From: Akkermansia muciniphila | GTDB lineage: Bacteria > Verrucomicrobiota > Verrucomicrobiia > Limisphaerales > BJHT01 | Assembly (NCBI GenBank): GCA_945861535.1 | Contig: CAMAUZ010000029.1 | Location: 7,935 to 71,934 of the forward strand | Reading direction: 5' to 3' | DNA length: 64,000 nucleotides | Shown here: one piece after another, positions 756-62,589 of the stretch | How the letters are laid out: each line of letters opens with the position of its first letter | Position numbering within the stretch: the first letter of the stretch is position 1 | The notes under the pieces: generated by a model | What the model was told of the DNA's origin: nothing | Database searches by the model: none | Seen by the model: the letters and a program-made list of their open reading frames with translations, nothing else | Program-made: the position numbers and the translations under genes

Positions 756-1004
756 GCCCCGGAGGGGCATCGCAGAATATTAGCCGGGGGCAAGCGAGGA
801 ACGAGCGCAGCCCCCGGTCCACCGCGTCGAACCGGGCATGCCCCGGAGGGGCACCGGAGGAAAATCCCGCGACCCACGCCACCCACCGCCCGGTTTTTCA
901 ACCGATGCCCCTCCGGGGCACGACCGCAAGTCATCACCCGTTCCGGGGGCCGCGCTCGTTCCTCGCTTGCCCCCGGCTAATTTCCTGCGGCGTCCCTCCG
1001 GGAC
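756..1004. repeat. Family-1 composite palindromic repeat, unit 1
   Basis: Left arm 'CCCCGGAGGGGCATCGCAGAATATTAGCCGGGGGCAAGCGAGGAACGAGCGCAGCCCCCGG'. Two internal hairpins, GCCCCGGAGGGGC and GCCCCTCCGGGGC. Right arm is the inverted copy 'CCGGGGGCCGCGCTCGTTCCTCGCTTGCCCCCGGCTAATTTCC...CCCTCCGGGAC'. Confidence 0.85.
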
Positions 1005-1135
1005 CAACTCCACGTCCTGTGCGCGCGCCAGACGAAACCGGGATCGCGCAACCCAGCAACGCAGGCTCGCTCTTTCTCGCACGTCCGAGCGCCCTCGCGT
1101 TCGCACCTTGCGATGCCGCGCCTTCGCGCGCCCCG

Positions 1136-1388
1136 CTTCGCCCCAGAGGGGCTTCGGAGAACATTAGCCGGGGGCAAGCGAGGAACGAGCGCAGCCCCCG
1201 GTCCATCGCGCCCTACATGCCATGCCCCGGAGGGGCACCGAAGGAAAACCCCGCGACTCACGCCATCCGCCGCCCGATTTTTCTACCGATGCCCCTCCGG
1301 GGCACGGCCGCAAGTCATCACCCGTTCCGGGGGCCGCGCTCGTTCCTCGCTTGCCCCCGGCTAATTTCCTGCGGCGTCCCTCCGGGAC
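1136..1388. repeat. Family-1 composite palindromic repeat, unit 2
   Basis: Same architecture and near-identical sequence to 756..1004. Ends 50 bp upstream of the RAYT-1 start codon. Confidence 0.85.
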
Positions 1389-1437
1389 AAAACCTTCTCG
1401 TTCGCACCTTTAACAACCAACCACTAAGAAAAACGTT

Positions 1438-1884
1438 ATGGGTTCCACCTACCTGAGCCTCCATTACCACATCGTCTGGGCGACCAAAGCCCGGCGCAAT
1501 CTGATCGAGCCACGGTGGGACCCGAAACTTCACGCCTTTCTCGGCGGCCTTCTGAAAAACCTCGGTGGCGTCGCCGAAACCATCAACGGCACCCGCGACC
1601 ATCTCCACATTCTCGCCGGCCTGCGCGCGACCCACGCCCTCGCCGACGTTGTCCGCGATTTGAAATCGCTCTCCGCCGAATGGGTTCACAAGGAACTCAA
1701 GGGTTGGGACTTCGGCTGGCAGGAAGGTTACTTCGCCGCCACCGTCAGTCCGACCCAACGCCCGTCCGTGCGCCGCTACATCGCCAAGCAAAAGGAACAT
1801 CACAAAACCGAGTCCTCGAAAACCGAACTCGAACGACTCCTCAAACGCGCTGAAATCAAATATGACCCGCAATACTTTGAGTAA
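1438..1884 (+). CDS. IS200/IS605-family Y1 (HUH) transposase, RAYT-like (copy 1)
   Basis: 148 aa. N-terminus 'LSLHYHIVWATKARR', HUH motif 'HLHIL', 'WQEGYFAATVS', and the catalytic Tyr-x3-Gln 'YIAKQ'. Flanked by hairpin repeats. No tnpB partner. Confidence 0.85.
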   Translation: MGSTYLSLHYHIVWATKARRNLIEPRWDPKLHAFLGGLLKNLGGVAETINGTRDHLHILAGLRATHALADVVRDLKSLSAEWVHKELKGWDFGWQEGYFAATVSPTQRPSVRRYIAKQKEHHKTESSKTELERLLKRAEIKYDPQYFE

Positions 1885-1902
1885 CTCGAAAGGGGTTCTC
1901 AC

Positions 1903-2003
1903 GATGCCCCTCCGGGGCATGGCCACCTTGAGCACCGCGTTCCGGGGGCTGCGCTCGTCCCTCGCTTGCCCCCGGCTAATTTCCTCCGGCGTCCCTCCGG
2001 GAC
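1903..2003. repeat. Family-1 half unit (GCCCCTCCGGGGC hairpin plus right arm)
   Basis: Begins 18 bp after the RAYT-1 stop. Same orientation as the arm at about 1288..1388 on the other side of the gene. Confidence 0.8.
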
Positions 2004-2173
2004 CAGTTCCACATCCTACCTGCGCACCAAAAGAAACCGCGCTCCCGCACTCCCTCAACGCAACCTCATTCCGCGGCGTATCTCCGCACGCCGTCGTCAT
2101 CGCGCCATTCCGCAACCCACCTCCGCGCACGATTGCCGCCGCACCACCCCATAACGCATTTCCATGCGCCCCG

Positions 2174-2426
2174 CTTCGCCCCGGAGGGGCATCGCAGAAC
2201 ATTAGCCGGGGGCCAGCGAGGAACGAGAGCAGCCCCCGGTCTGCCGCGCCCCACGCTCCATGCCCCGGAGGGGCACCGAAGGAAAAGCCCGCCACACCCA
2301 CGGCCCACCGTAAGCTATTTCTGACGATGCCCCTCCGGGGCACGGCCGCAAATCCTCCCGCGTTCCGGGGGCTGCGCTCGTTCCTCGCTGGCCCCCGGCT
2401 AATTTCCTGCGGAGTCCCTCCGGGAC
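2174..2426. repeat. Family-1 composite palindromic repeat, unit 3
   Basis: Full unit, near-identical to 756..1004 and 1136..1388. Ends 30 bp upstream of the ATG at 2456. Confidence 0.85.
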
Positions 2427-2455
2427 AAATCACGACCATTCCCCGCTCCTTTCCC

Positions 2456-4921
2456 ATGCGAACATTTATTTTCCTCCTCACCCTCGCTCTCTTCGCCCTC
2501 TCGAATTTCGCGACCTTCGCCGCCGACTCCCTCCTCCTCCTCCCGCGCGAAATCTCCCTCACCGGCCCCGAAGCCCGCCAGAGCCTCCTCGTGGAAAAAT
2601 CCGACGGCACCCACTTCACCGGCCAGATCACCAACGCCATCACCTTCTCCACCAGCGATCCCAAAATCGCCCGCCTCGACGGCGCCACTGTCATCCCCGT
2701 TGCCAACGGCTCCGCCACCATCCGCGCCACCGTCAACGGCCAGACCCTCTCCGCCCCCGTCACCGTTGCCCGCATGGACACGCCCTTCGCCTGGAGTTTC
2801 CGCAACCACATCCAGCCCGTCCTCACCAAGTCCGGCTGCAACGCCGGCGCGTGCCACGGCGCGGCCGCCGGCCAGAACGGCTTCCGCGTCTCCCTCCGCG
2901 GCTACGACGACGACGGCGACCACACCATCCTCACCCGCGGCGCGATGAACCGCCGCATCACCCTCGCCGATCCCGCACGCAGCCTGTTGCTCCTCAAATC
3001 CACCGCCACCATCCCCCACAAAGGCGGCGAGCGCTTCAAGACCGGCTCCTTCGAATACCGTGTCCTCTCCGAATGGATCGCCGCCGGCGCGCCCGGCCCG
3101 CGCCCCGACGATCCGCGCATCACCCGCCTCGAAGTCCTCCCGCCCGCCGCGTTGCTCCAGCCCGGCGCGACGCAGCAACTCTCCGTCCGCGCCACCTTCA
3201 GCGACGGCCACACCGAGGACGTCACCCGCTGGGCCAAGTTCAACGCCGTCAACACCTCCGTCGCCGGCGTGGACGAATCCGGTCGCGTCACCGTTTCCGG
3301 TCACGGCGAAACCAGCGTCAGCGCCTGGTATCTCAGTCAGCTCGCCATCACCACCGTCACCTCGCCTTACGCGAAGCCCGTCCCCGCCGCGCTCTTCACG
3401 AACTCCCCGCGCCGCAATTTCATCGACGACTTCGTCCTCGAAAAACTCCGCGAACTCAACCTCCCGCCCTCGCCCCGCAGCACCGACAGCGAATTCCTCC
3501 GGCGCGCCTTCCTCGACACCATCGGCGTGCCGCCCACCGCCGACGAAACTCGCGCCTTCCTCGCCGACCGCTCCGCCGGCAAGCGCGACGCCCTCATCGA
3601 TACCCTCCTCGCGCGCCCCGAATTCATCGACTACTGGAGCTACCGCTGGAGCGACCTCCTCCTCGTCAACAGCGACAAACTCCCGCCCACCGCCATGTGG
3701 GCCTACTACAACTGGATTCGCAAAAACGTCGCCGCCAACACGCCGTGGGACCGCTTCGTCCGCGACCTCGTCACCGCCACCGGCAGCACCCTCGAACACG
3801 GCGCGGGCAATTTTTACATCCTCCACGACGAACCCACCAAGATGGCCGAGACCGTCTCCGTCGCTTTCCTCGGCTTCTCCATCAACTGCGCCAAATGCCA
3901 CAACCATCCGCTCGAAAAATGGACCAACGACGAATACTTCGGCTTCGCCAATCTCTTCGCCCGCACCCGCTCCAAACGCGGCGTCGCCCCCGATGAACAA
4001 ATCATCTTCTCCGCCACCGAAGGCGACCTCGTCCAGCCGCTCACCGGCCGCCCCCAAGCCCCGAAACCCCTCGACGCCGCCCCCATTTCCCTCACCGCCA
4101 AAGAAGACCGCCGCGCCCCCCTCGCCGCGTGGCTCACATCTCCGAAAAACGAGCAGTTCAGCAAAACCATCGTGAACCGTGTCTGGGCCAACTTCTTCGG
4201 CCTCGGCCTCGTCGAGTCCGTGGACGACATCCGCGTCGCCAACCCCGCCAGCAACGAAAAACTTTTCACCGCCGCCGCCGCGCACCTTGTGAAAAACCAG
4301 TTCGACCTCAAGGCCCTCATGCGCACGATTCTCCAGAGCGAAACCTACCAGCGCTCCAGCCTCGCCCTGCCCGAGAACCAGGACGACACCCGCTACCTCG
4401 CCCGCTTCTACCCGCGCCGCCTCAAAGCCGAAGTCCTCCTCGACGCCTTCTCCGCCGCCACCGCCGTCCCCACCACCTTCCGCATCGACGCCCGCAACGC
4501 CAACCGCGGCCTCGGCCGCATGTACCCCGAAGGCTTCCGCGCCCTCCAGCTCCCCGACTCGAATGTCGCCTCCTACTTCCTGAAAAGCTTCGGCCGCCCC
4601 GAGCGCCTCGCCACCTGCGAATGCGAGCGCACCAGCGAACCCAGCATGGCCCAGGCCCTCCACCTCGCCAACGGCGACACCCTCAACGACAAGCTCGCCA
4701 AAAAAGGCAACCGCCTCGACCAACTCCTCGCCAAAAAACTCCTCGACGCCGAACTCCTCGAAGAAACCTACCTCCTCACCCTCAACCGCCCGCCCACCCC
4801 CGCCGAAAAAACCAAACTCACCCAAGCCCTCGCCACCACGCCCGCCCCCGACCGCCGCGCCGCCGTGGAGGACATTTTCTGGAGCCTCCTGAGCAGTCGG
4901 GAGTTTTTGTTTAACCACTGA
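2456..4921 (+). CDS. DUF1549/DUF1553 (PSCyt2/PSD1) domain protein with N-terminal Big_2-like domain and signal peptide
   Basis: ATG at 2456 gives the signal peptide 'MRTFIFLLTLALFALSNFATFAA'. Motifs 'CNAGACHG' and 'CAKCHNHPLEKWTNDEY', and a C-terminal DUF1553-type region. The ORF track's upstream extension (1862..) only translates repeats. Confidence 0.9.
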   Translation: MRTFIFLLTLALFALSNFATFAADSLLLLPREISLTGPEARQSLLVEKSDGTHFTGQITNAITFSTSDPKIARLDGATVIPVANGSATIRATVNGQTLSAPVTVARMDTPFAWSFRNHIQPVLTKSGCNAGACHGAAAGQNGFRVSLRGYDDDGDHTILTRGAMNRRITLADPARSLLLLKSTATIPHKGGERFKTGSFEYRVLSEWIAAGAPGPRPDDPRITRLEVLPPAALLQPGATQQLSVRATFSDGHTEDVTRWAKFNAVNTSVAGVDESGRVTVSGHGETSVSAWYLSQLAITTVTSPYAKPVPAALFTNSPRRNFIDDFVLEKLRELNLPPSPRSTDSEFLRRAFLDTIGVPPTADETRAFLADRSAGKRDALIDTLLARPEFIDYWSYRWSDLLLVNSDKLPPTAMWAYYNWIRKNVAANTPWDRFVRDLVTATGSTLEHGAGNFYILHDEPTKMAETVSVAFLGFSINCAKCHNHPLEKWTNDEYFGFANLFARTRSKRGVAPDEQIIFSATEGDLVQPLTGRPQAPKPLDAAPISLTAKEDRRAPLAAWLTSPKNEQFSKTIVNRVWANFFGLGLVESVDDIRVANPASNEKLFTAAAAHLVKNQFDLKALMRTILQSETYQRSSLALPENQDDTRYLARFYPRRLKAEVLLDAFSAATAVPTTFRIDARNANRGLGRMYPEGFRALQLPDSNVASYFLKSFGRPERLATCECERTSEPSMAQALHLANGDTLNDKLAKKGNRLDQLLAKKLLDAELLEETYLLTLNRPPTPAEKTKLTQALATTPAPDRRAAVEDIFWSLLSSREFLFNH

Positions 4922-4940
4922 GGCGACAGGATCAGGAGCG

Positions 4941-5840
4941 ATGAGAGGCATTTTGAAAAAGATCGGGTTGGTGGCAGCAATCATCTGCGCTCTTTTCGTC
5001 AGCACCGAACCAAACACGATGAACGCCAAACCCGAAGTTGACCTGGTCTACGAGACATTCAGCCAAGCGCTGAACGTGAGAGGCTTCACGTTGCTTCGCA
5101 AAGTCGACGAGGACGTTTACGAGGTGAAAAACAAGGATGGAAAGCGAACTGTCAGCCTGAGAAACGGGCGGAAGCAATTTCTTCAGGACAAGGATGCCGA
5201 AGGATTGAAACGATTCGTGGACAGGCTCCTCATAGATTTGGCGATCTTGCCAAACTGGAACGAAGCCAAAGCTCGCGTGCGCCTACAGGTGGAGCCAGCG
5301 GATCACGATTTTGGGAAGGCGATTCACGAGAAGATTTCCGACGTGGTTTCTTTTGTTGCGGTTTACGTGTCCGCAGACGGGGCACACATTACTTGGATTG
5401 ACGAAAGCCAATTGAAAACGTGGAAAATTGGTCGCGAAGAACTCGTCGGAGCGGCAAAGAAAAATCTTAATCACTTGGTAAACGCTGCGAAGCTGGAAGT
5501 GCAAGACATCGACGGGATGAAGCTCGGCTTCTTGTCCGTCAACACCGAGTCCGAATCTGCCTTCAAAGCCTCACTCATTCTCGCGCCAGCGCTGAAAACA
5601 ATAATTTCAAAGGAATTGGGATGGCCCGTTCATGCAGTCATTCCAGCACGCGACTTCCTCTATCTCGTTCCCCTTCGCGACAAGGGTTTGATCCCACGAA
5701 TAGGGCGCGTCGTCGTGGGCGAATACTCCAAGTCTGCCTATCCCCTGACTACCGAAGTGTTTGTTCTGAGCGATGAGAAGGCTGATGCCATTGGTGCATT
5801 TCCAGTCGAAACAAAAATCCCAGCGAAGACTCTGAAATAA
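4941..5840 (+). CDS. Secreted hypothetical protein, possibly DUF1444/YtpQ-like
   Basis: AGGAG lies 3-7 nt upstream of the ATG and there is an N-terminal hydrophobic signal. The C-terminal pattern 'VIPARDFLYLVP...PLTTEVFVL' resembles DUF1444 from memory only. The gene is markedly more A/T-rich than its neighbours. Confidence 0.7.
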   Translation: MRGILKKIGLVAAIICALFVSTEPNTMNAKPEVDLVYETFSQALNVRGFTLLRKVDEDVYEVKNKDGKRTVSLRNGRKQFLQDKDAEGLKRFVDRLLIDLAILPNWNEAKARVRLQVEPADHDFGKAIHEKISDVVSFVAVYVSADGAHITWIDESQLKTWKIGREELVGAAKKNLNHLVNAAKLEVQDIDGMKLGFLSVNTESESAFKASLILAPALKTIISKELGWPVHAVIPARDFLYLVPLRDKGLIPRIGRVVVGEYSKSAYPLTTEVFVLSDEKADAIGAFPVETKIPAKTLK

Positions 5841-5841
5841 A

Positions 5842-11775: not shown

Positions 11776-14424
11776 TCAGTGCTGAAACAAAAACTCGTTG
11801 AGATTCAGCACCGACCACGCCACATCCGACAGCGCCGCCCCGCGATCTGCGCGCCCCGCGACATACCGCGTCGCCGTCGCCAATTCCGAGTCCGTCGGCG
11901 GACGGCACAGCGCCGCGCGATACAGGTCCGCGATGATCTCCCCATCCTTGCGCCCCTCCGCGATCTGCTTCCGCCACTGGTTGTTCGCCGACTGCAATTT
12001 CCCGTGCAACAGCGGCCCGTTGAAGAGCTGCAGCGCCTGCCCGAGATGCGTCGTCGTCGGACGCTCGCACGCGCACGCGGTCTGGCGCGGCGGCTGGCCG
12101 AACGTGCTGAGAAACGCGTTGTTCGCCTCGGGCGCGGGAAGCTGCGTCGCGAGCGTGCCGGGCGGGAGATTCGCGAACGTTTCTGGCAACCCGCTCACCT
12201 GACACACCGCGTCGAGCAACTGCTCCGCCGTGAGCAACCGCTGCCGATAGCGCGAAAAAAACTGCCGGTCGTCGTGATTAAAACGGTTCGGCGTCGAGCT
12301 GGTCTGATACGTGCGGCTGTTGAGAATCGTGCGCAGCAGTTGCTTGCGGTCGAAACGCTGCGTCGCGAACTCCTTCGCCAGCGCGTCGAGCAACTCGACA
12401 TTCGAGGGCGGATTGGAATCCCGGAAATCATCAATCGGCTCGACGATCCCCTGACCCATCACCTGCGCCCAGATGCGGTTCGCCTCGGCGCGCGCGAAGA
12501 ACGCATTGGTCGGCTGCGTGAGCCACTCGACGAACGCCGCGCGCCGGTCGGCCTCGGGCGGCAGGTTCATCTCCCCGCGATTCGGCGCCCACGGTTTCAT
12601 CTCCTTGCCCGTGCGCGGCTGCATCACTTCGCCCCGCCGCGCGACCCAGATGATTTGTTCGCCCGCGCGATTGCCCGGCTGCCGCTGGAGCCGCTCGAAC
12701 ACCGCGTTCATCCCGTAATAATTATCCTGCGTCCACCGCTCGAAGGGATGGTTGTGACAGCGCGCGCACTGGATGCGAACGCCGAGAAAAATCTGCGCCG
12801 TCGTCTCCGTCGCGTCGCTGCCCGTGGCGGCGGTGCGATAATAATTCGCCGCGGGATTCTCCAGCGTGCTCCCGTCCGCGAGCAGCAGTTCGCGCACGAA
12901 CTGGTCATACGGCTGGTTCACCTCGAACGCGCGCACGAGCCAGCGATGGAACTTATGCACGCCGCCCGCGCCCAGCGCCGTCGGATTCAGCCGCAGCCAG
13001 TCGCCCCATTTCAATGCCCAGAACCGCGGAAACTCCGGCCGCGCGAGCAGCTCATCAATCAGCCGCGCCCGCTTGTCCTTGGCCACGTCACCCAGAAAGC
13101 GCCGCGTCTCCGCCAGCGTCGGCAGCAGCCCGATCACATCGAGATAAACCCGCCGCACAAACTCCTCGTCGGTCGCCGGCTCCGACGGCAGGAACTGCAA
13201 CTGCCGCAGCTTCGCCTGCACGAGCGTGTCGATGAAATTGCTCACCGGCGGCGCCTGCCACACGAATCCCTCGATGTCCCGCACGAACGTAAAGCCCACC
13301 GTCTCAACATCCTCCAGAAACCGCACGCTCACCGCGACCTGCCCCCGTCCCTGACCCACGACCAATCCCTCCGGCGTCACCGTGGCAATCGCCTCGTCCG
13401 AACTCGCATACATCGCCAGCCGCGTGATGTCCCGCTCGGTGCCGTCGGCGAAGCGCGCCATCACCTGCAATTGCTGCGTGTGCGCCGGCCATTTCAGCAA
13501 CCGGCTCGCGCCCGGATGCACCACGATCCCCGTGCAGGCCGGAGCCTCCGCGCGATCAAACGCGCAGCCCTGATTGATCCAATCCACCAGCAGCCCATGC
13601 GCCTCCTCGCCCGCCCGCAGCCGCTGTCCGCCGCGATGCGCCACCTGCGCGAGCGGTTTGCGCAAGAGCAGGCTCGCCTCCGGTTCCAGCAGGTTGATGC
13701 GCCGGCTGAAGACCTCGCGCACCAGCGCATTCTTGTCCGCCTCCGGATCGAACGCGAACAGCGACAACGCAAATCCCCCCTTGCCACTCGGCGTCCCGTG
13801 ACACCCGCCCGAATTGCAACCCTGCTTGCTCAATGCCGCCAGCACGCCGTATTTGAACCCGACCGGCGCAGCCGCTCCCTGCGCCGCCACCTCCACCGGC
13901 ACCCGCGTCTCGCGCCCGCCCACGCTCACCCGCAGTTCCGTCCGCCCATCGCCCACCGGCGACACCCAGCCCGCCTCGACCCGGGCGACCTTCGCATCCG
14001 CGCTCTCGATGCGCGCCGCCCGCGTGAGATCCTGCATCGCCCCGTCCGCATAAAATCCCGTCACCACCACCTGCGCCCGCGCCCGCGCCCCCGCGAGCTT
14101 CACCGCCGCCGGATGCACCACCACCCGTGTCACCGCGCCGACCAGCACCGGCTGCAACTCCGCCGCCCTGCCCTCCCGCTCCACCTTCTCCGCCGCGGCC
14201 GCACTCGCGACGAACAACATCCCTAGCAGCAGCAACCCCAAACTCCGAAACCAAACGGGGAGCGCACGCGGCCCGCGTGCCGGTTTGGGTGGCCCGCCCA
14301 AACCGTCGTTCCCCGGTCTGACCAGCCCTCCGCCGGAAAAAGTGAGTGGAACGAAGTTTTCGGCGGGCCGCCGAAAACTGCACGCCAGCGGCGTGCGCTC
14401 CCCGGACCGTCGGGCGTTGTCCAT
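11776..14424 (-). CDS. DUF1549/DUF1553 (PSCyt2/PSD1) domain protein with Big_2-like N-terminal domain
   Basis: 'CNSGGCHGTPSGKGGF', 'CARCHNHPFERWTQDNYY', and a DUF1553-type C-terminus ending 'EFLFQH', as the paralogue at 2456 ends 'EFLFNH'. The start is set at 'MDNARRSG'; upstream parts of the ORF translate repeats. The start remains uncertain. Confidence 0.85.
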   Translation of the reverse strand: MDNARRSGERTPLACSFRRPAENFVPLTFSGGGLVRPGNDGLGGPPKPARGPRALPVWFRSLGLLLLGMLFVASAAAAEKVEREGRAAELQPVLVGAVTRVVVHPAAVKLAGARARAQVVVTGFYADGAMQDLTRAARIESADAKVARVEAGWVSPVGDGRTELRVSVGGRETRVPVEVAAQGAAAPVGFKYGVLAALSKQGCNSGGCHGTPSGKGGFALSLFAFDPEADKNALVREVFSRRINLLEPEASLLLRKPLAQVAHRGGQRLRAGEEAHGLLVDWINQGCAFDRAEAPACTGIVVHPGASRLLKWPAHTQQLQVMARFADGTERDITRLAMYASSDEAIATVTPEGLVVGQGRGQVAVSVRFLEDVETVGFTFVRDIEGFVWQAPPVSNFIDTLVQAKLRQLQFLPSEPATDEEFVRRVYLDVIGLLPTLAETRRFLGDVAKDKRARLIDELLARPEFPRFWALKWGDWLRLNPTALGAGGVHKFHRWLVRAFEVNQPYDQFVRELLLADGSTLENPAANYYRTAATGSDATETTAQIFLGVRIQCARCHNHPFERWTQDNYYGMNAVFERLQRQPGNRAGEQIIWVARRGEVMQPRTGKEMKPWAPNRGEMNLPPEADRRAAFVEWLTQPTNAFFARAEANRIWAQVMGQGIVEPIDDFRDSNPPSNVELLDALAKEFATQRFDRKQLLRTILNSRTYQTSSTPNRFNHDDRQFFSRYRQRLLTAEQLLDAVCQVSGLPETFANLPPGTLATQLPAPEANNAFLSTFGQPPRQTACACERPTTTHLGQALQLFNGPLLHGKLQSANNQWRKQIAEGRKDGEIIADLYRAALCRPPTDSELATATRYVAGRADRGAALSDVAWSVLNLNEFLFQH

Positions 14425-14747: not shown

Positions 14748-14961
14748 GTTTAGCGCCAAAGGCGCGGCTCATACCAGCCTGGGGCAACGCCCCAGGTCAG
14801 ATGTCAGCCAATGAATTCAGGGGCTGAAAGCCCGTTCCATCTTCCTGATGAAGGGTGATCCGTCCCCGCGATGGACCGCGCTTTCAGCGCTCAAATGGTA
14901 AATGGCTCGTTTCCTGGGGCGTTGCCCCAGGCTGGGATAAGTCCACGCCTTTGGCGCTAAA
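14748..14961. repeat. Family-4 composite palindrome (TTTAGCGCC...GGCGCTAAA)
   Basis: Six symmetric small hairpins: GCGCCAAAGGCGC, CCTGGGGCAACGCCCCAGG, GGGCTGAAAGCCC, GCGCTTTCAGCGC, CCTGGGGCGTTGCCCCAGG and CGCCTTTGGCG. Confidence 0.8.
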
Positions 14962-54557: not shown

Positions 54558-54654
54558 GATCCCGGAGGGATCGAAGAAATTAGCCGGTGGTGAAGCGCAG
54601 CGGAACCACCGGACAAGCCCTCCCCAGAACCGAGATTGCGTCCCGGAGGGACGC
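54558..54654. repeat. Family-2 left end (TTAG-hairpin arm plus GCGTCCCGGAGGGACGC hairpin)
   Basis: 'GAAATTAGCCGGTGGTGAAGCGCAGCGGAACCACCGG' followed by 'GCGTCCCGGAGGGACGC'. Confidence 0.8.
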
Positions 54655-54925
54655 GAGAGGCGCGGAAATGGAGATGGTGGTCAGTCATCCCGGCGCTGCG
54701 GTGGGGCGCGGGCACCGTCCCACGATGACACGCCCGGCGGGGACATAGCTCGCTTCTTTGAATCGGTCTCGCGTTTCCCCATCCCGTTGCCAACCGCCGT
54801 GATCATCCCAACCTCCGCCTTGGAGTTCTCCCTTTCGGGACCAAAGCAACCGGATGCCGAAAATGCGCGGCGCAACGGCTTGAAAAACGGATTGCTCATC
54901 GTCGCCGCGCAAGGATGCTTTCGTC

Positions 54926-55372
54926 ATGCCCTCAACACATCTCTCGCTTCATTACCATCTGGTTTTCAGCACCAAGGATCGTGAGCCGTGGTTCCGTCCA
55001 GATTTGCGGCCGCGAATTCACCAATACCTTGGCGGGGTGATTCGCAGTCTGGATGGCATCCCGCACGGAGTCGGCGGCATGGCCGATCATGTGCATGTCT
55101 TCGCAGGGTTGCGGGCCACTCATTGTCTGGCCGATGTGATGCGCGAACTGAAGAGCGACTCATCGCAGTGGGTGCATAAGGAACTCAAGCTGGGTGGCTT
55201 TGCGTGGCAGGAGGGGTATGGAGGATTCACGGTCAGCGCTTCAAATCTGGAGTCGGTGCGGAACTACGTCCTGAATCAGGAACGGCACCATCGGACCAAG
55301 ACGTTTCAGGAAGAGTATGTCGGGATGTTGAAACGGGGATTGGTGGAATACAAAGAAGCGCATCTGTGGTGA
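54926..55372 (+). CDS. IS200/IS605-family Y1 (HUH) transposase, RAYT-like (copy 2)
   Basis: 148 aa. 'LSLHYHLVFSTKDRE', HUH 'HVHVF', 'WQEGYGGFTVS', and Tyr-x3-Gln 'YVLNQ'. Clearly diverged from copy 1, so these are paralogues rather than copies of one IS. Confidence 0.85.
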   Translation: MPSTHLSLHYHLVFSTKDREPWFRPDLRPRIHQYLGGVIRSLDGIPHGVGGMADHVHVFAGLRATHCLADVMRELKSDSSQWVHKELKLGGFAWQEGYGGFTVSASNLESVRNYVLNQERHHRTKTFQEEYVGMLKRGLVEYKEAHLW

Positions 55373-55400
55373 GACGCCTTTCGCGGGTGCCACGCTTCTC

Positions 55401-55494
55401 TCGCCCCTCCGGGGCGAAGCATTGTTTTTGCCGTTGATCCGGTGGTTCCGCTGCGCTTCACCACCGGCTAATTTCTTTCGTGCCTCCGGCACGA
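55401..55494. repeat. Family-2 right end (CGCCCCTCCGGGGCG hairpin plus inverted TTAG-hairpin arm)
   Basis: 'CCGGTGGTTCCGCTGCGCTTCACCACCGGCTAATTTC'. Confidence 0.8.
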
Positions 55495-58589: not shown

Positions 58590-58858
58590 GTCGTGCCGGA
58601 GGCACGCAAGAAATTAGCCGGTGGTGCAGCGCAGCGGAACCACCGGATTAATCGCCGAAAGAAGCCCTTCGCCCCGGCGGGGCGAGAGAACTGCAAAACT
58701 CGCCACCCCGCGTCGCCACCCAGGACCTCTTCGCTCCCTTCTCGGCCCGCCTTCTCGCGTCCCTCCGGGACGCAATCACGATTTGGGTGGGGTCGATATC
58801 CGGTGGTTCCGCTGCGCTCCACCACCGGCTAATTTCTCTGCTCCCGCCGGGAGCAAGG
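58590..58858. repeat. Family-2 composite element (269 bp), RAYT-less
   Basis: TTAG arm, GCCCCGGCGGGGC hairpin, 68-bp core, GCGTCCCTCCGGGACGC hairpin, inverted arm. Both halves match the ends of locus 54558..55494 in inverted orientation. Confidence 0.85.
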
Positions 58859-62023: not shown

Positions 62024-62350
62024 GTCGCGACGAATCCGAACCGCGAAGCGGACAGCGGTGGCGCTACTTCTAACGGGATGCGTCTGGAACGCAATGCCCC
62101 GCTCGATCCGGCACCGGCGGGACTGATCAGGCAGGCCGGAAAACCGGAAACGGAAGCGGAGCGGAACGATGGCGTCACCTCCTCCCGCCTCGCCATGAAA
62201 AACAGGCACTGCCAGTCAAGGTATCAGTCTTTGCGAAAGTTCGTGCTGTCCGGACCGGGGTCGCTGGCTCCCTGCAAAAAAGCTCGTGCTGCAAGTGGTC
62301 TCCAGCAGCGGCCGGTCGATCAGGCGGGCTCGGTTCAGGTCGCCCACGGC

Positions 62351-62589
62351 CGAACCCCGGAGGGGTTCCCGGTGAATAGCCGGGGGTGGAGCGAGGCACG
62401 AGCAAGCCCCCCGGAAACCAGCCGCCGCGCTCCCGAACCCCGGAGGGGTTCCCCGATCACCGGACCGTCCGCAACTCCCCAGAAGGGGCTACCCCTGCGG
62501 GGTAGAGGCTGATTCTCCGCCCCTTCCCGGGGGTACGCTCGTTCCTCGCGCACCCCCGGCTATTCACCGGGAACCCCTCCGGGGTTCGG
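62351..62589. repeat. Family-3 composite palindrome (ATAG-hairpin arms)
   Basis: 'GAACCCCGGAGGGGTTCCCGGTGAATAGCCGGGGGTGGAGCGAGGCACGAGCAAGCCCCCCGG' and the inverted 'CCCGGGGGTACGCTCGTTCCTCGCGCACCCCCGGCTATTCACCGGGAACCCCTCCGGGGTTC'. Confidence 0.85.

Follow-up and report, generated by a model that had tools for sequence, protein, structure and literature searches.

A probable REPtron formed by a subclass 1.2-type Y1 gene and tagged three-hairpin repeats in Verrucomicrobiota

A 64,000-nucleotide stretch of Akkermansia muciniphila DNA (assembly GCA_945861535.1, contig CAMAUZ010000029.1, positions 7,935 to 71,934), referred to throughout as the window, contains at 756-2426 three imperfect palindromes of 250 nt and one right-hand half unit, arranged around a Y1_Tnp gene that we call RAYT-1. 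We propose, with a probability of roughly three in four, that this locus is a REPtron, comprising a low-copy, vertically inherited gene of the HUH/Y1 type, its cognate repetitive extragenic palindromic (REP) hairpins, and a cluster of gene-less REP doublets (REPINs) that resembles a bacterial interspersed mosaic element (BIME). The pairing of REPs and REPINs with Y1 enzymes is the standard example of a domesticated transposase that maintains a population of non-autonomous repeats. The arrangement found at RAYT-1 is a known one; it is the presence of REPs beside an enzyme of transposase subclass 1.2 that departs from the reference survey.

The repeats themselves have the properties of REPINs. 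The left arm of each unit consists of an outer hairpin (GCCCC-GGA-GGGGC), 11 nt, a TTAG tag, the REP hairpin CCGGGGGC(18 nt)GCCCCCGG, approximately 22 nt, and a second accessory hairpin (GCCCCGGAGGGGC). The right arm mirrors the left, but its outer hairpin has a different stem (GTCCC...GGGAC), and the doublets are therefore heterodimers. Within a unit the REPs are inverted, the arms are 85-90% complementary over 65 nt and lie 125 nt apart, and the doublet preceding the gene, folded as single-stranded DNA over 1140-1391, is predicted to form one long hairpin (-93.4 kcal/mol, z = -12); single arms are predicted to form three local hairpins. The cluster as a whole is BIME-like, with REPs that alternate in orientation (+ - + -, the gene, then - + -), units and spacers that together form a direct repeat with a regular period of 384 nt, and spacers that are homologous (939-1129 against 1938-2128, 74% match). 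The first two units are 92% identical. The motif TTAGCCGGGGGC has seven exact matches in the window, always within 780-2402, and occurs at 21 sites when up to two mismatches are allowed, against 9.6 +/- 3.2 in shuffled sequences; GCCCCTCCGGGGC occurs 12 times with at most one mismatch, against 0.5 expected. A first-pass annotation of the window, made from its sequence alone, had described three full units and a half unit, all of which are present (Table 1); it placed their ends exactly, and the starts that it gave for the second and third units (1136 and 2174) lie 4 nt before the first hairpin. Searching Rfam with the whole window at the gathering threshold, and with 650-2500 at E <= 1, returned only generic microRNA-type hairpin matches far below threshold, ruling out the array as a known RNA family.

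The same architecture recurs around related genes. A profile-guided scan of metagenome contigs recovered 80 loci, encoding relatives with 36-57% identity, and their flanks share one design: hairpin 1, 6-11 nt, (T/G/A)TAG, a REP hairpin starting CC(G/A)G, approximately 21 nt, hairpin 2, a GGAG resembling a ribosome-binding site, the gene from ATG to stop codon, and then the mirror image. The flanks that define a REPtron, which at RAYT-1 are TTAG with the REP hairpin on both sides of the gene, are found in all of the orthologues and most of the 80 loci. Both accessory hairpins are of the GGA-loop type, the second adjoining the gene, and the foot (T/G/A)TAGCC is common to the 144 arms of the family. 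These arms were located by tag and REP alone, and only then scored for accessory hairpins at the expected distance; hairpin 1 was found in 137 and hairpin 2 in 136 of the 144, compared with 11.7 and 17.4 in composition-matched shuffles, despite the use of more than 40 different stem sequences. Covariation was assessed at five hairpin-1 pairs in a sequence-only MAFFT alignment of 55 arms. These positions were paired in 95.3% of cases, against 27-56% in slid controls, and 74 cells had changed on both sides, against 19.7 in shuffles, none of 500 of which reached 74. Hence the accessory hairpins, judged by these arm counts and the compensatory changes in hairpin 1, are selected structures and not chance GC palindromes. 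A conserved motif following the accessory hairpins, as a possible cleavage site, was also sought; only a weak preference for G (56-66%) emerged, and it was not used. Taxonomically labelled hosts of these loci include Verrucomicrobiota and Acidobacteriota.

The gene-less units can be understood as derivatives of this layout. The unit centre has ACCGGAGGAAAA just after hairpin 2 and TTTTTC(A/T)ACCGAT just before hairpin 2', and retains GGAGGAAAA, a remnant of a ribosome-binding site. Because canonical relatives, including an 84%-identical orthologue (L100), have hairpin 2 followed by GCCGGAGGAAATCTGA-ATG, the 250-nt units look like a REPtron from which the gene has been removed. A direct example of this relationship is provided by an Acidobacteriota bin (JBDTOZ), which shares the REP tag and stem of the window (TTAGCCGGGGGC...GCCCCCGG) and has different loops and accessory hairpins. 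One of its loci is an intact REPtron, with an intact gene between inverted arms (L015, 7260-7925); another has the same arms around only the first 25 or so codons, joined directly to hairpin 2' of the right arm (L005, 772-1136).

The RAYT-1 protein has the catalytic motifs of its family, with an HUH motif (D54-H55-L56-H57), W94-Q95, and the tyrosine motif Y114-x3-Q118-x2-H121-H122. It matches Pfam Y1_Tnp at E 1.5e-22 (80.5 bits against a cutoff of 23), and passes the NCBIfam IS200/IS605 model NF033573 (65.5 bits against a cutoff of 55). When the gene product was aligned with 31 relatives, H55, H57, W94, Q95, Y114, Q118, H121 and H122 were invariant in all 32 sequences, and E130, L135 and D143 in the C-terminal region were conserved. 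All eight PDB matches at E <= 0.01 are transposases of the IS200/IS605 type, the best being 2fyx, 2xm3 (ISDra2) and 2a6m (IS608), and the E. coli TnpA-REP chain is not among these eight. By sequence, the enzyme is not a classical REP-associated tyrosine transposase (RAYT), and is closer to the TnpA of IS200/IS605. Its motif YIAKQKEHH (Y-x3-Q-x2-HH), WQ, length and conserved C-terminal tail are those of TnpAY1 subclass 1.2, an assignment made by comparing this signature with Table 1 of Quentin, Siguier, Chandler and Fichant (2018, PMC6006769). Members of that subclass have a median length of 148 aa, a DH[IV]H-type HuH, WQ, a YIKNQKEHH-type tyrosine motif and a C-terminal tail, are present at low copy number with low identity between copies, and are without insertion-sequence properties (PMC6006769). 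The TIRYT/TIRtron class was considered and rejected, as most TIRYTs belong to subclass 2.1 and have helix-turn-helix tails (PMC6006769), unlike this 148-aa protein.

The gene is also conserved and, in the loci covered, of low copy number. There are two Y1 copies in the window, with only 49% identity between them, and neither the window nor the locus of any relative, each of which has one copy, yielded a near-identical second one. Among orthologues, the ratio of non-synonymous to synonymous substitution (dN/dS) is 0.05-0.17 at dS 0.2-1.2. Since this ratio stays so low over a dS of up to about 1, it indicates purifying selection throughout and long vertical descent.

Table 1. Features of the RAYT-1 locus and of the other REP loci in the window (positions are those of the window).
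Feature	Position	Strand	Description
U1	756-1004	.	family-1 REP doublet, tags outward; left arm 756-852, centre 853-906, right arm 907-1004
U1 left side	hairpin 1 756-768; TTAG 780-783; REP 784-817; hairpin 2 840-852		
U1 right side	hairpin 2' 907-919; REP' 943-976; CTAA 977-980; hairpin 1' 992-1004		
Spacer S1	1005-1139	+	component of the 384-nt repeating period
U2	1140-1388	.	complete doublet directly 5' of the gene; right arm 1281-1388
Leader	1389-1437	+	49 nt from right arm to ATG; non-canonical
RAYT-1	1438-1884	+	Y1/HUH gene, 148 aa, Pfam PF01797
Half unit h	1896-2003	-	single right arm; hairpin 2' 1906-1918, REP' 1942-1975, CTAA 1976-1979, hairpin 1' 1991-2003
Spacer S2	2004-2177	+	homologous to S1 (74%)
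U3	2178-2426	.	doublet; ends 29 nt 5' of the ATG (2456) of the DUF1549/DUF1553 gene
Second REPtron	54560-55492	+	paralogue 54926-55372; inverted family-2 arms, TTAG at 54580, CTAA at 55468
Gene-less family-2 doublet	58593-58850	.	
Gene-less family-3 doublet	62347-62585	.	ATAG tag, CCGGGGGT stem, GAACCCCGGAGGGGTTC accessory hairpins

The immediate surroundings of the gene differ from the family norm. Among the 49 loci that were scorable, having a REP called on each side, the proximal arms are inverted in 39; in five both are '-', in four both are '+', and one is reversed. The window is one of the five '-' loci, together with its orthologues L004 and L013 and the independent loci L057 and L064. 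Its gene is flanked by two right arms on the bottom strand, that of U2 as the upstream partner (1281-1388) and half unit h as the downstream one (1896-2003), which are 88% identical in direct orientation. The first-pass annotation had correctly noticed the same half unit on both sides of the gene, and had likened the pair to the same-strand left and right ends of IS200/IS605 elements. As stated, this reading is not supported: two same-strand arms do flank the gene, but they are ordinary doublet arms in a family where inversion is the rule, the left arm of U2 (1140-1236) and h still form a canonical inverted pair, L100 retains the canonical order of left arm, ribosome-binding site and ATG, and the block that occupies different places in relatives is the whole doublet, gene and half unit, as opposed to a 615-nt unit of gene plus arm. 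As the outer arms remain inverted around a whole upstream doublet, and as L100 is canonical, the same-strand bracket appears to be a derived, secondary state. Half unit h is itself a canonical downstream arm in the position typical of the family, with the REP approximately 40-60 nt past the stop codon. It is upstream that the gene is unusual: where canonical members have a left arm with hairpin 2 and then a ribosome-binding site, RAYT-1 is preceded by U2 and a 49-nt leader that lacks both of the latter. An 18-nt likeness of S1 (1092-1109) to the leader (1393-1410) is too short to interpret. A complete upstream doublet (+ -) before the gene is found in the window lineage and in L057; among the mirror-image loci, L079 has its doublet downstream. 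In L057 the leader is 47 nt, similar to that of the window, and the outer hairpin of the distal left arm (CGAGCC) is that of the downstream arm, whereas the intervening right arm has CGTGCC.

This derived state is shared with orthologues. When one genome per species was scanned for the exact family-1 REP pattern, 18 loci were identified, and three Verrucomicrobiota genome bins proved syntenic with the window. Every orthologue found has family-1 arms, so that no related strain was seen to carry the gene without flanking repeats. The doublet, the leader of approximately 46-49 nt, the gene and the half unit are whole in L004, L013 and L099, and are visible in L101 and L102 as far as these short contigs reach, with leaders of the same length in all five; the block is conserved down to about 80% identity, and orthologous proteins are approximately 65-98% identical. 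Half unit h is 95% identical between the window and L004. Hence, with the direct arms of the window only 88% alike, h is not a fresh duplication of a target or end, and a recent copying of the right arm as a transposition footprint was rejected. In L013 (JAYVOY010000076.1, about 1370-1385) a 1-nt frameshift lies just before the catalytic tyrosine codon, such that tblastn splits the orthologue into two frames; this is either a pseudogene or an assembly error.

The position of the block is less stable than its content. The window and L009/L001 (91-95% identical) share the order DUF1501 - [U1 S1 U2 gene h S2 U3] - DUF1549/1553. In L004 (93%), U3 alone lies upstream of the DUF1549/1553 gene; [U1 S1 U2 gene h] is on its downstream side, with toxin-antitoxin-like genes beyond, and S2 is absent from both positions. 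L013 (80%) and L099 read DUF1549/1553 - [U gene h] - next gene, an order of which L101 shows only the end (gene - h - next gene), and L102 has yet another right flank. The DUF1549/1553 gene therefore follows the block in the window and one relative, and precedes it in four (L004, L013, L099 and L101), with the breaks in homology coinciding with arm ends (754 and 2009 in the window). An assembly artefact is an unlikely source of the two positions, each of which was seen in at least two independent assemblies. By their flanking genes, L004 and L009 are 96% identical, the window and L009 95%, and the window and L004 93%, all being approximately 80% identical to L013; the closest pair, L004 and L009, differs in block arrangement, and these identities do not fit a single move of the block. 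The different positions may reflect transposition, excision as a circle and reintegration through homologous recombination, or differential loss of two copies. Family-1 arms are also dispersed, being found on other contigs of related bins: four (L010, L012, L016 and L018) match the unit, L012 carrying beside it the 3' portion of the S1 spacer, and in a fifth (L017) the tag and stem are shared but the loop differs.

Such differences in position, together with the IS200-like class 1 sequence of the protein, might suggest that the gene and one right arm (615 nt), or the whole block, are an active IS200/IS605-type insertion sequence, with the arms at 1281-1388 and 1896-2003 as the ends for 'peel and paste' transposition. 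Both of these arms present TTAG and a hairpin on the bottom strand, 615 nt apart; taking out those 615 nt gives back the regular 384-nt array; relatives that are 93-96% identical have the block on different sides of the DUF1549/1553 gene; and the '+ - gene -' geometry recurs independently in L057 and L064. However, an insertion sequence of this type is expected in several near-identical copies, whereas the sole other copy in the window is the 49%-identical paralogue and the relatives' loci add none, and the low dN/dS speaks for long vertical persistence. The two direct arms are also less alike within the window than h is between orthologues, and arms are inverted across the family and in the canonical orthologue. 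In every context, what is found is the full doublet, leader, gene and half unit, bounded by inverted arms, and the 615-nt unit never stands alone. We consider this explanation very unlikely.

A related idea, which we regard as a long shot, is that acquisition of the upstream doublet gave a long-domesticated Y1 gene same-strand ends again, and thereby rendered the gene-plus-arm unit or the block mobile through IS200-like single-strand excision and insertion next to REPs. If true, this would account for the two locations of the block, with the DUF1549/1553 gene following it in the window and L009 and preceding it in the four other relatives, and would represent a REPtron transposing as a unit, contrary to the literature on REPtrons.

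In the tandem part of the array, the right arms of U1 and U2 (897-1004 and 1281-1388) are 98% identical within the window and only 84-86% identical to the arms in the same positions in L004, which indicates that these repeats evolve in concert, probably through gene conversion or recent tandem duplication within the array. This concerted evolution, and the 384-nt period with its homologous spacers, could mean that the array arose mainly through tandem duplication and homologous recombination, and that it persists because it serves the host, for instance by stabilising a transcript, by attenuation or as a promoter for the DUF1549/DUF1553 gene, with the Y1 gene an inactive passenger. Host roles are on record for both REP and BIME elements (PMC8266576, PMC3733652), and U3 still ends 29 nt ahead of the ATG in L004, whose array is otherwise located elsewhere, and is next to the gene in L009. 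Yet in L004 the greater part of the array lies elsewhere than upstream of this gene, nothing resembling a terminator or a sigma-70 promoter was detected in 600-2600, the Y1 gene is under strong purifying selection with its catalytic residues intact, and arms with compensatory hairpin changes flank such genes across phyla. A host function with a passenger gene is therefore unlikely to account for the locus.

The same evidence bears on the earlier suggestion that the array lies in the promoter or 5' untranslated region of the gene at 2456. The array does separate a DUF1501 gene from a PSCyt2/PSD1 (DUF1549/DUF1553) gene, as had been described, and the ATG at 2456 opens a plausible signal peptide; the suggestion is a positional one, U3 lying 29 nt from this ATG both here and in L004 and adjoining the gene in L009. 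The search of 600-2600 for a sigma-70-like promoter or an intrinsic terminator found neither. Three long stop-free open reading frames (ORFs) run through the array (164-1456 on the + strand, 1318-2841 on the - strand and 1862-4921 on the + strand), one of them as an in-frame upstream extension of the DUF1549/1553 gene by 198 codons. These are likely artefacts of the high GC content, and could mislead gene callers. The intergenic region on the far side of the DUF1549/1553 gene (4922-5841 in the window, 4266-4833 in L009 and 6452-7840 in L004) carries different cargo in each relative: a 299-aa ORF in the window, a small ORF with its own inverted repeats in L009, and two toxin-antitoxin-like pairs plus the Y1 block in L004.

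Returning to the REPtron that we favour, its operation can be outlined by analogy with E. coli TnpA-REP and the TnpA enzymes of IS608 and ISDra2 (PMC8266576, PMC6006769). The nuclease-ligase would bind the folded REP hairpin on single-stranded DNA, with the 5' tetranucleotide positioning cleavage, and would form a 5'-phosphotyrosine link through Y114 before the strand is rejoined at another REP. Such action may copy or move REP doublets and seed rearrangements, with homologous recombination between units then generating the 384-nt tandem period. The same-orientation bracket would have arisen when a whole doublet and the 49-nt leader came to separate the original left arm from the ATG. Cleavage and mobilisation by RAYT-1 are inferred from these enzymes.

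Several considerations weigh against this interpretation. Firstly, cleavage and mobility at this locus are proposed by analogy with other systems. Secondly, in the survey of Quentin et al. (2018) the entry for subclass 1.2 reads 'REP: no' (PMC6006769). Thirdly, the protein fails the NCBIfam RAYT model NF047646 (16.1 bits against a cutoff of 80), and its tyrosine motif is YIAKQ, and not the YxxxNP of classical, class 2 RAYTs; the original label of 'RAYT-like' is supported in the sense of a Y1 gene of IS200/RAYT type (PF01797). Fourthly, the number of family-1 copies looks low, at a handful per genome bin, in bins that under-represent repeats. Fifthly, the different block positions could reflect homologous recombination or differential loss and not enzyme action.

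Comparison with known systems places the locus closest to the REPtron, or RAYT-REPIN, systems, such as TnpA-REP with BIMEs in E. coli and the RAYTs with REPINs in Pseudomonas fluorescens. As far as the window and related bins show, the locus shares with them a low-copy Y1 gene under purifying selection, one REP family per gene, REP hairpins with a conserved 5' tetranucleotide foot, and gene-less inverted doublets that are both dispersed and clustered, and fold into long hairpins. The differences are that the enzyme here is of class 1 (Y-x3-Q-x2-HH, 148 aa) and not class 2 (YxxxNP), that the tag is mostly TTAG and not GT[AG]G, that each arm has two extra conserved GGA-loop hairpins, extending the doublets to 250 nt, and that in the window lineage a whole doublet lies between left arm and gene. 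With subclass 1.2 as surveyed, the protein shares its sequence features and low copy number, but this gene and the 80 metagenome loci are flanked by tagged REP modules, and the labelled hosts include Verrucomicrobiota and Acidobacteriota, whereas the survey found the subclass mostly in Cyanobacteria and Bacteroidetes (PMC6006769). The literature searched yielded no account of subclass 1.2 enzymes being associated with REP arms that are tagged and have three hairpins.

The elements IS608, ISDra2 and IS200 share with the locus the enzyme fold, the catalytic set of HUH and Y-x3-Q, gene-adjoining hairpins with a 5' tetranucleotide in the position equivalent to the guide, and, at RAYT-1, two arms on the same strand. 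They differ in that the locus is without multiple identical copies and without tnpB, in that its arms are normally inverted and identical, in contrast to distinct left and right ends on one strand, and in that its hairpin modules also occur as gene-less doublets. With E. coli BIMEs and the 'grouped' GTAG repeats of Di Nocera et al. (2013), the array shares alternating REPs, conserved linkers, tandem reiteration with flanking DNA, and doublet arms that differ systematically (GCCCC and GTCCC outer hairpins), like Y and Z REPs; its unit is much longer (250 nt, with a period of 384 nt), and one unit is interrupted by a Y1 gene. In such repeats, doublets with outward tags predominate, clusters reiterate doublets together with flanking DNA, and the verrucomicrobial Opitutus terrae is rich in GTAG repeats (PMC3733652).

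The RAYT-1 locus and its 80 relatives tie tagged REPs to the IS200-like subclass 1.2 and, if this link holds, REPtron behaviour would reach class 1 enzymes, and both Verrucomicrobiota and Acidobacteriota. The three-hairpin arm, backed by compensatory changes, offers a well-defined substrate for work in vitro, while the natural variants (the canonical orthologue, the form with a doublet upstream, the internally deleted copy and the block in its different positions) are comparative material on the origin of doublets and the rearrangement of REPtrons. For annotation, the reading explains why 1.7 kb of DNA separating two conserved genes looks 'non-coding' and contains several long ORFs that are spurious.

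The window contains further REP families. The paralogue of RAYT-1 (54926-55372), previously reported to lie between inverted REPs, is indeed flanked by inverted TTAG-CCGGTGGT arms. Hence each of the two paralogues has its own repeat family with a common TTAGCC foot, as had been suggested, TTAG being followed by CCGGGGGC in the one and by CCGGTGGT in the other. This supports the idea of cognate repeats, although the idea is not new, since REPtrons are known to pair each Y1 gene with a REP family of its own (PMC6006769, PMC3733652). The second locus is not tightly canonical, with approximately 270 nt of unrelated DNA (54613-54925) between left arm and ATG, and its left arm includes a hairpin at 54640-54652. 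Within the window, family-1 REPs are confined to the RAYT-1 locus, families 2 and 3 also have gene-less doublets, and no Y1 gene for family 3 was found.

Two smaller elements lie elsewhere in the window. At 14237-14404 is a highly self-complementary element of approximately 170 nt, with ends GGGGAGCGCACGC...GCGTGCGCTCCCC and several internal hairpins, which matches no Rfam family. It recurs three times, at 84-86% identity, in a locus of a related Verrucomicrobiota bin (L016; 537-707, 4237-4415 and 4639-4809), where two of the copies bracket a family-1 REP half unit. On the minus strand at 14752-14796 is a match to the Rfam small RNA Acido-Lenti-1 (RF01687), scoring 37.3 bits against a gathering score of 37.

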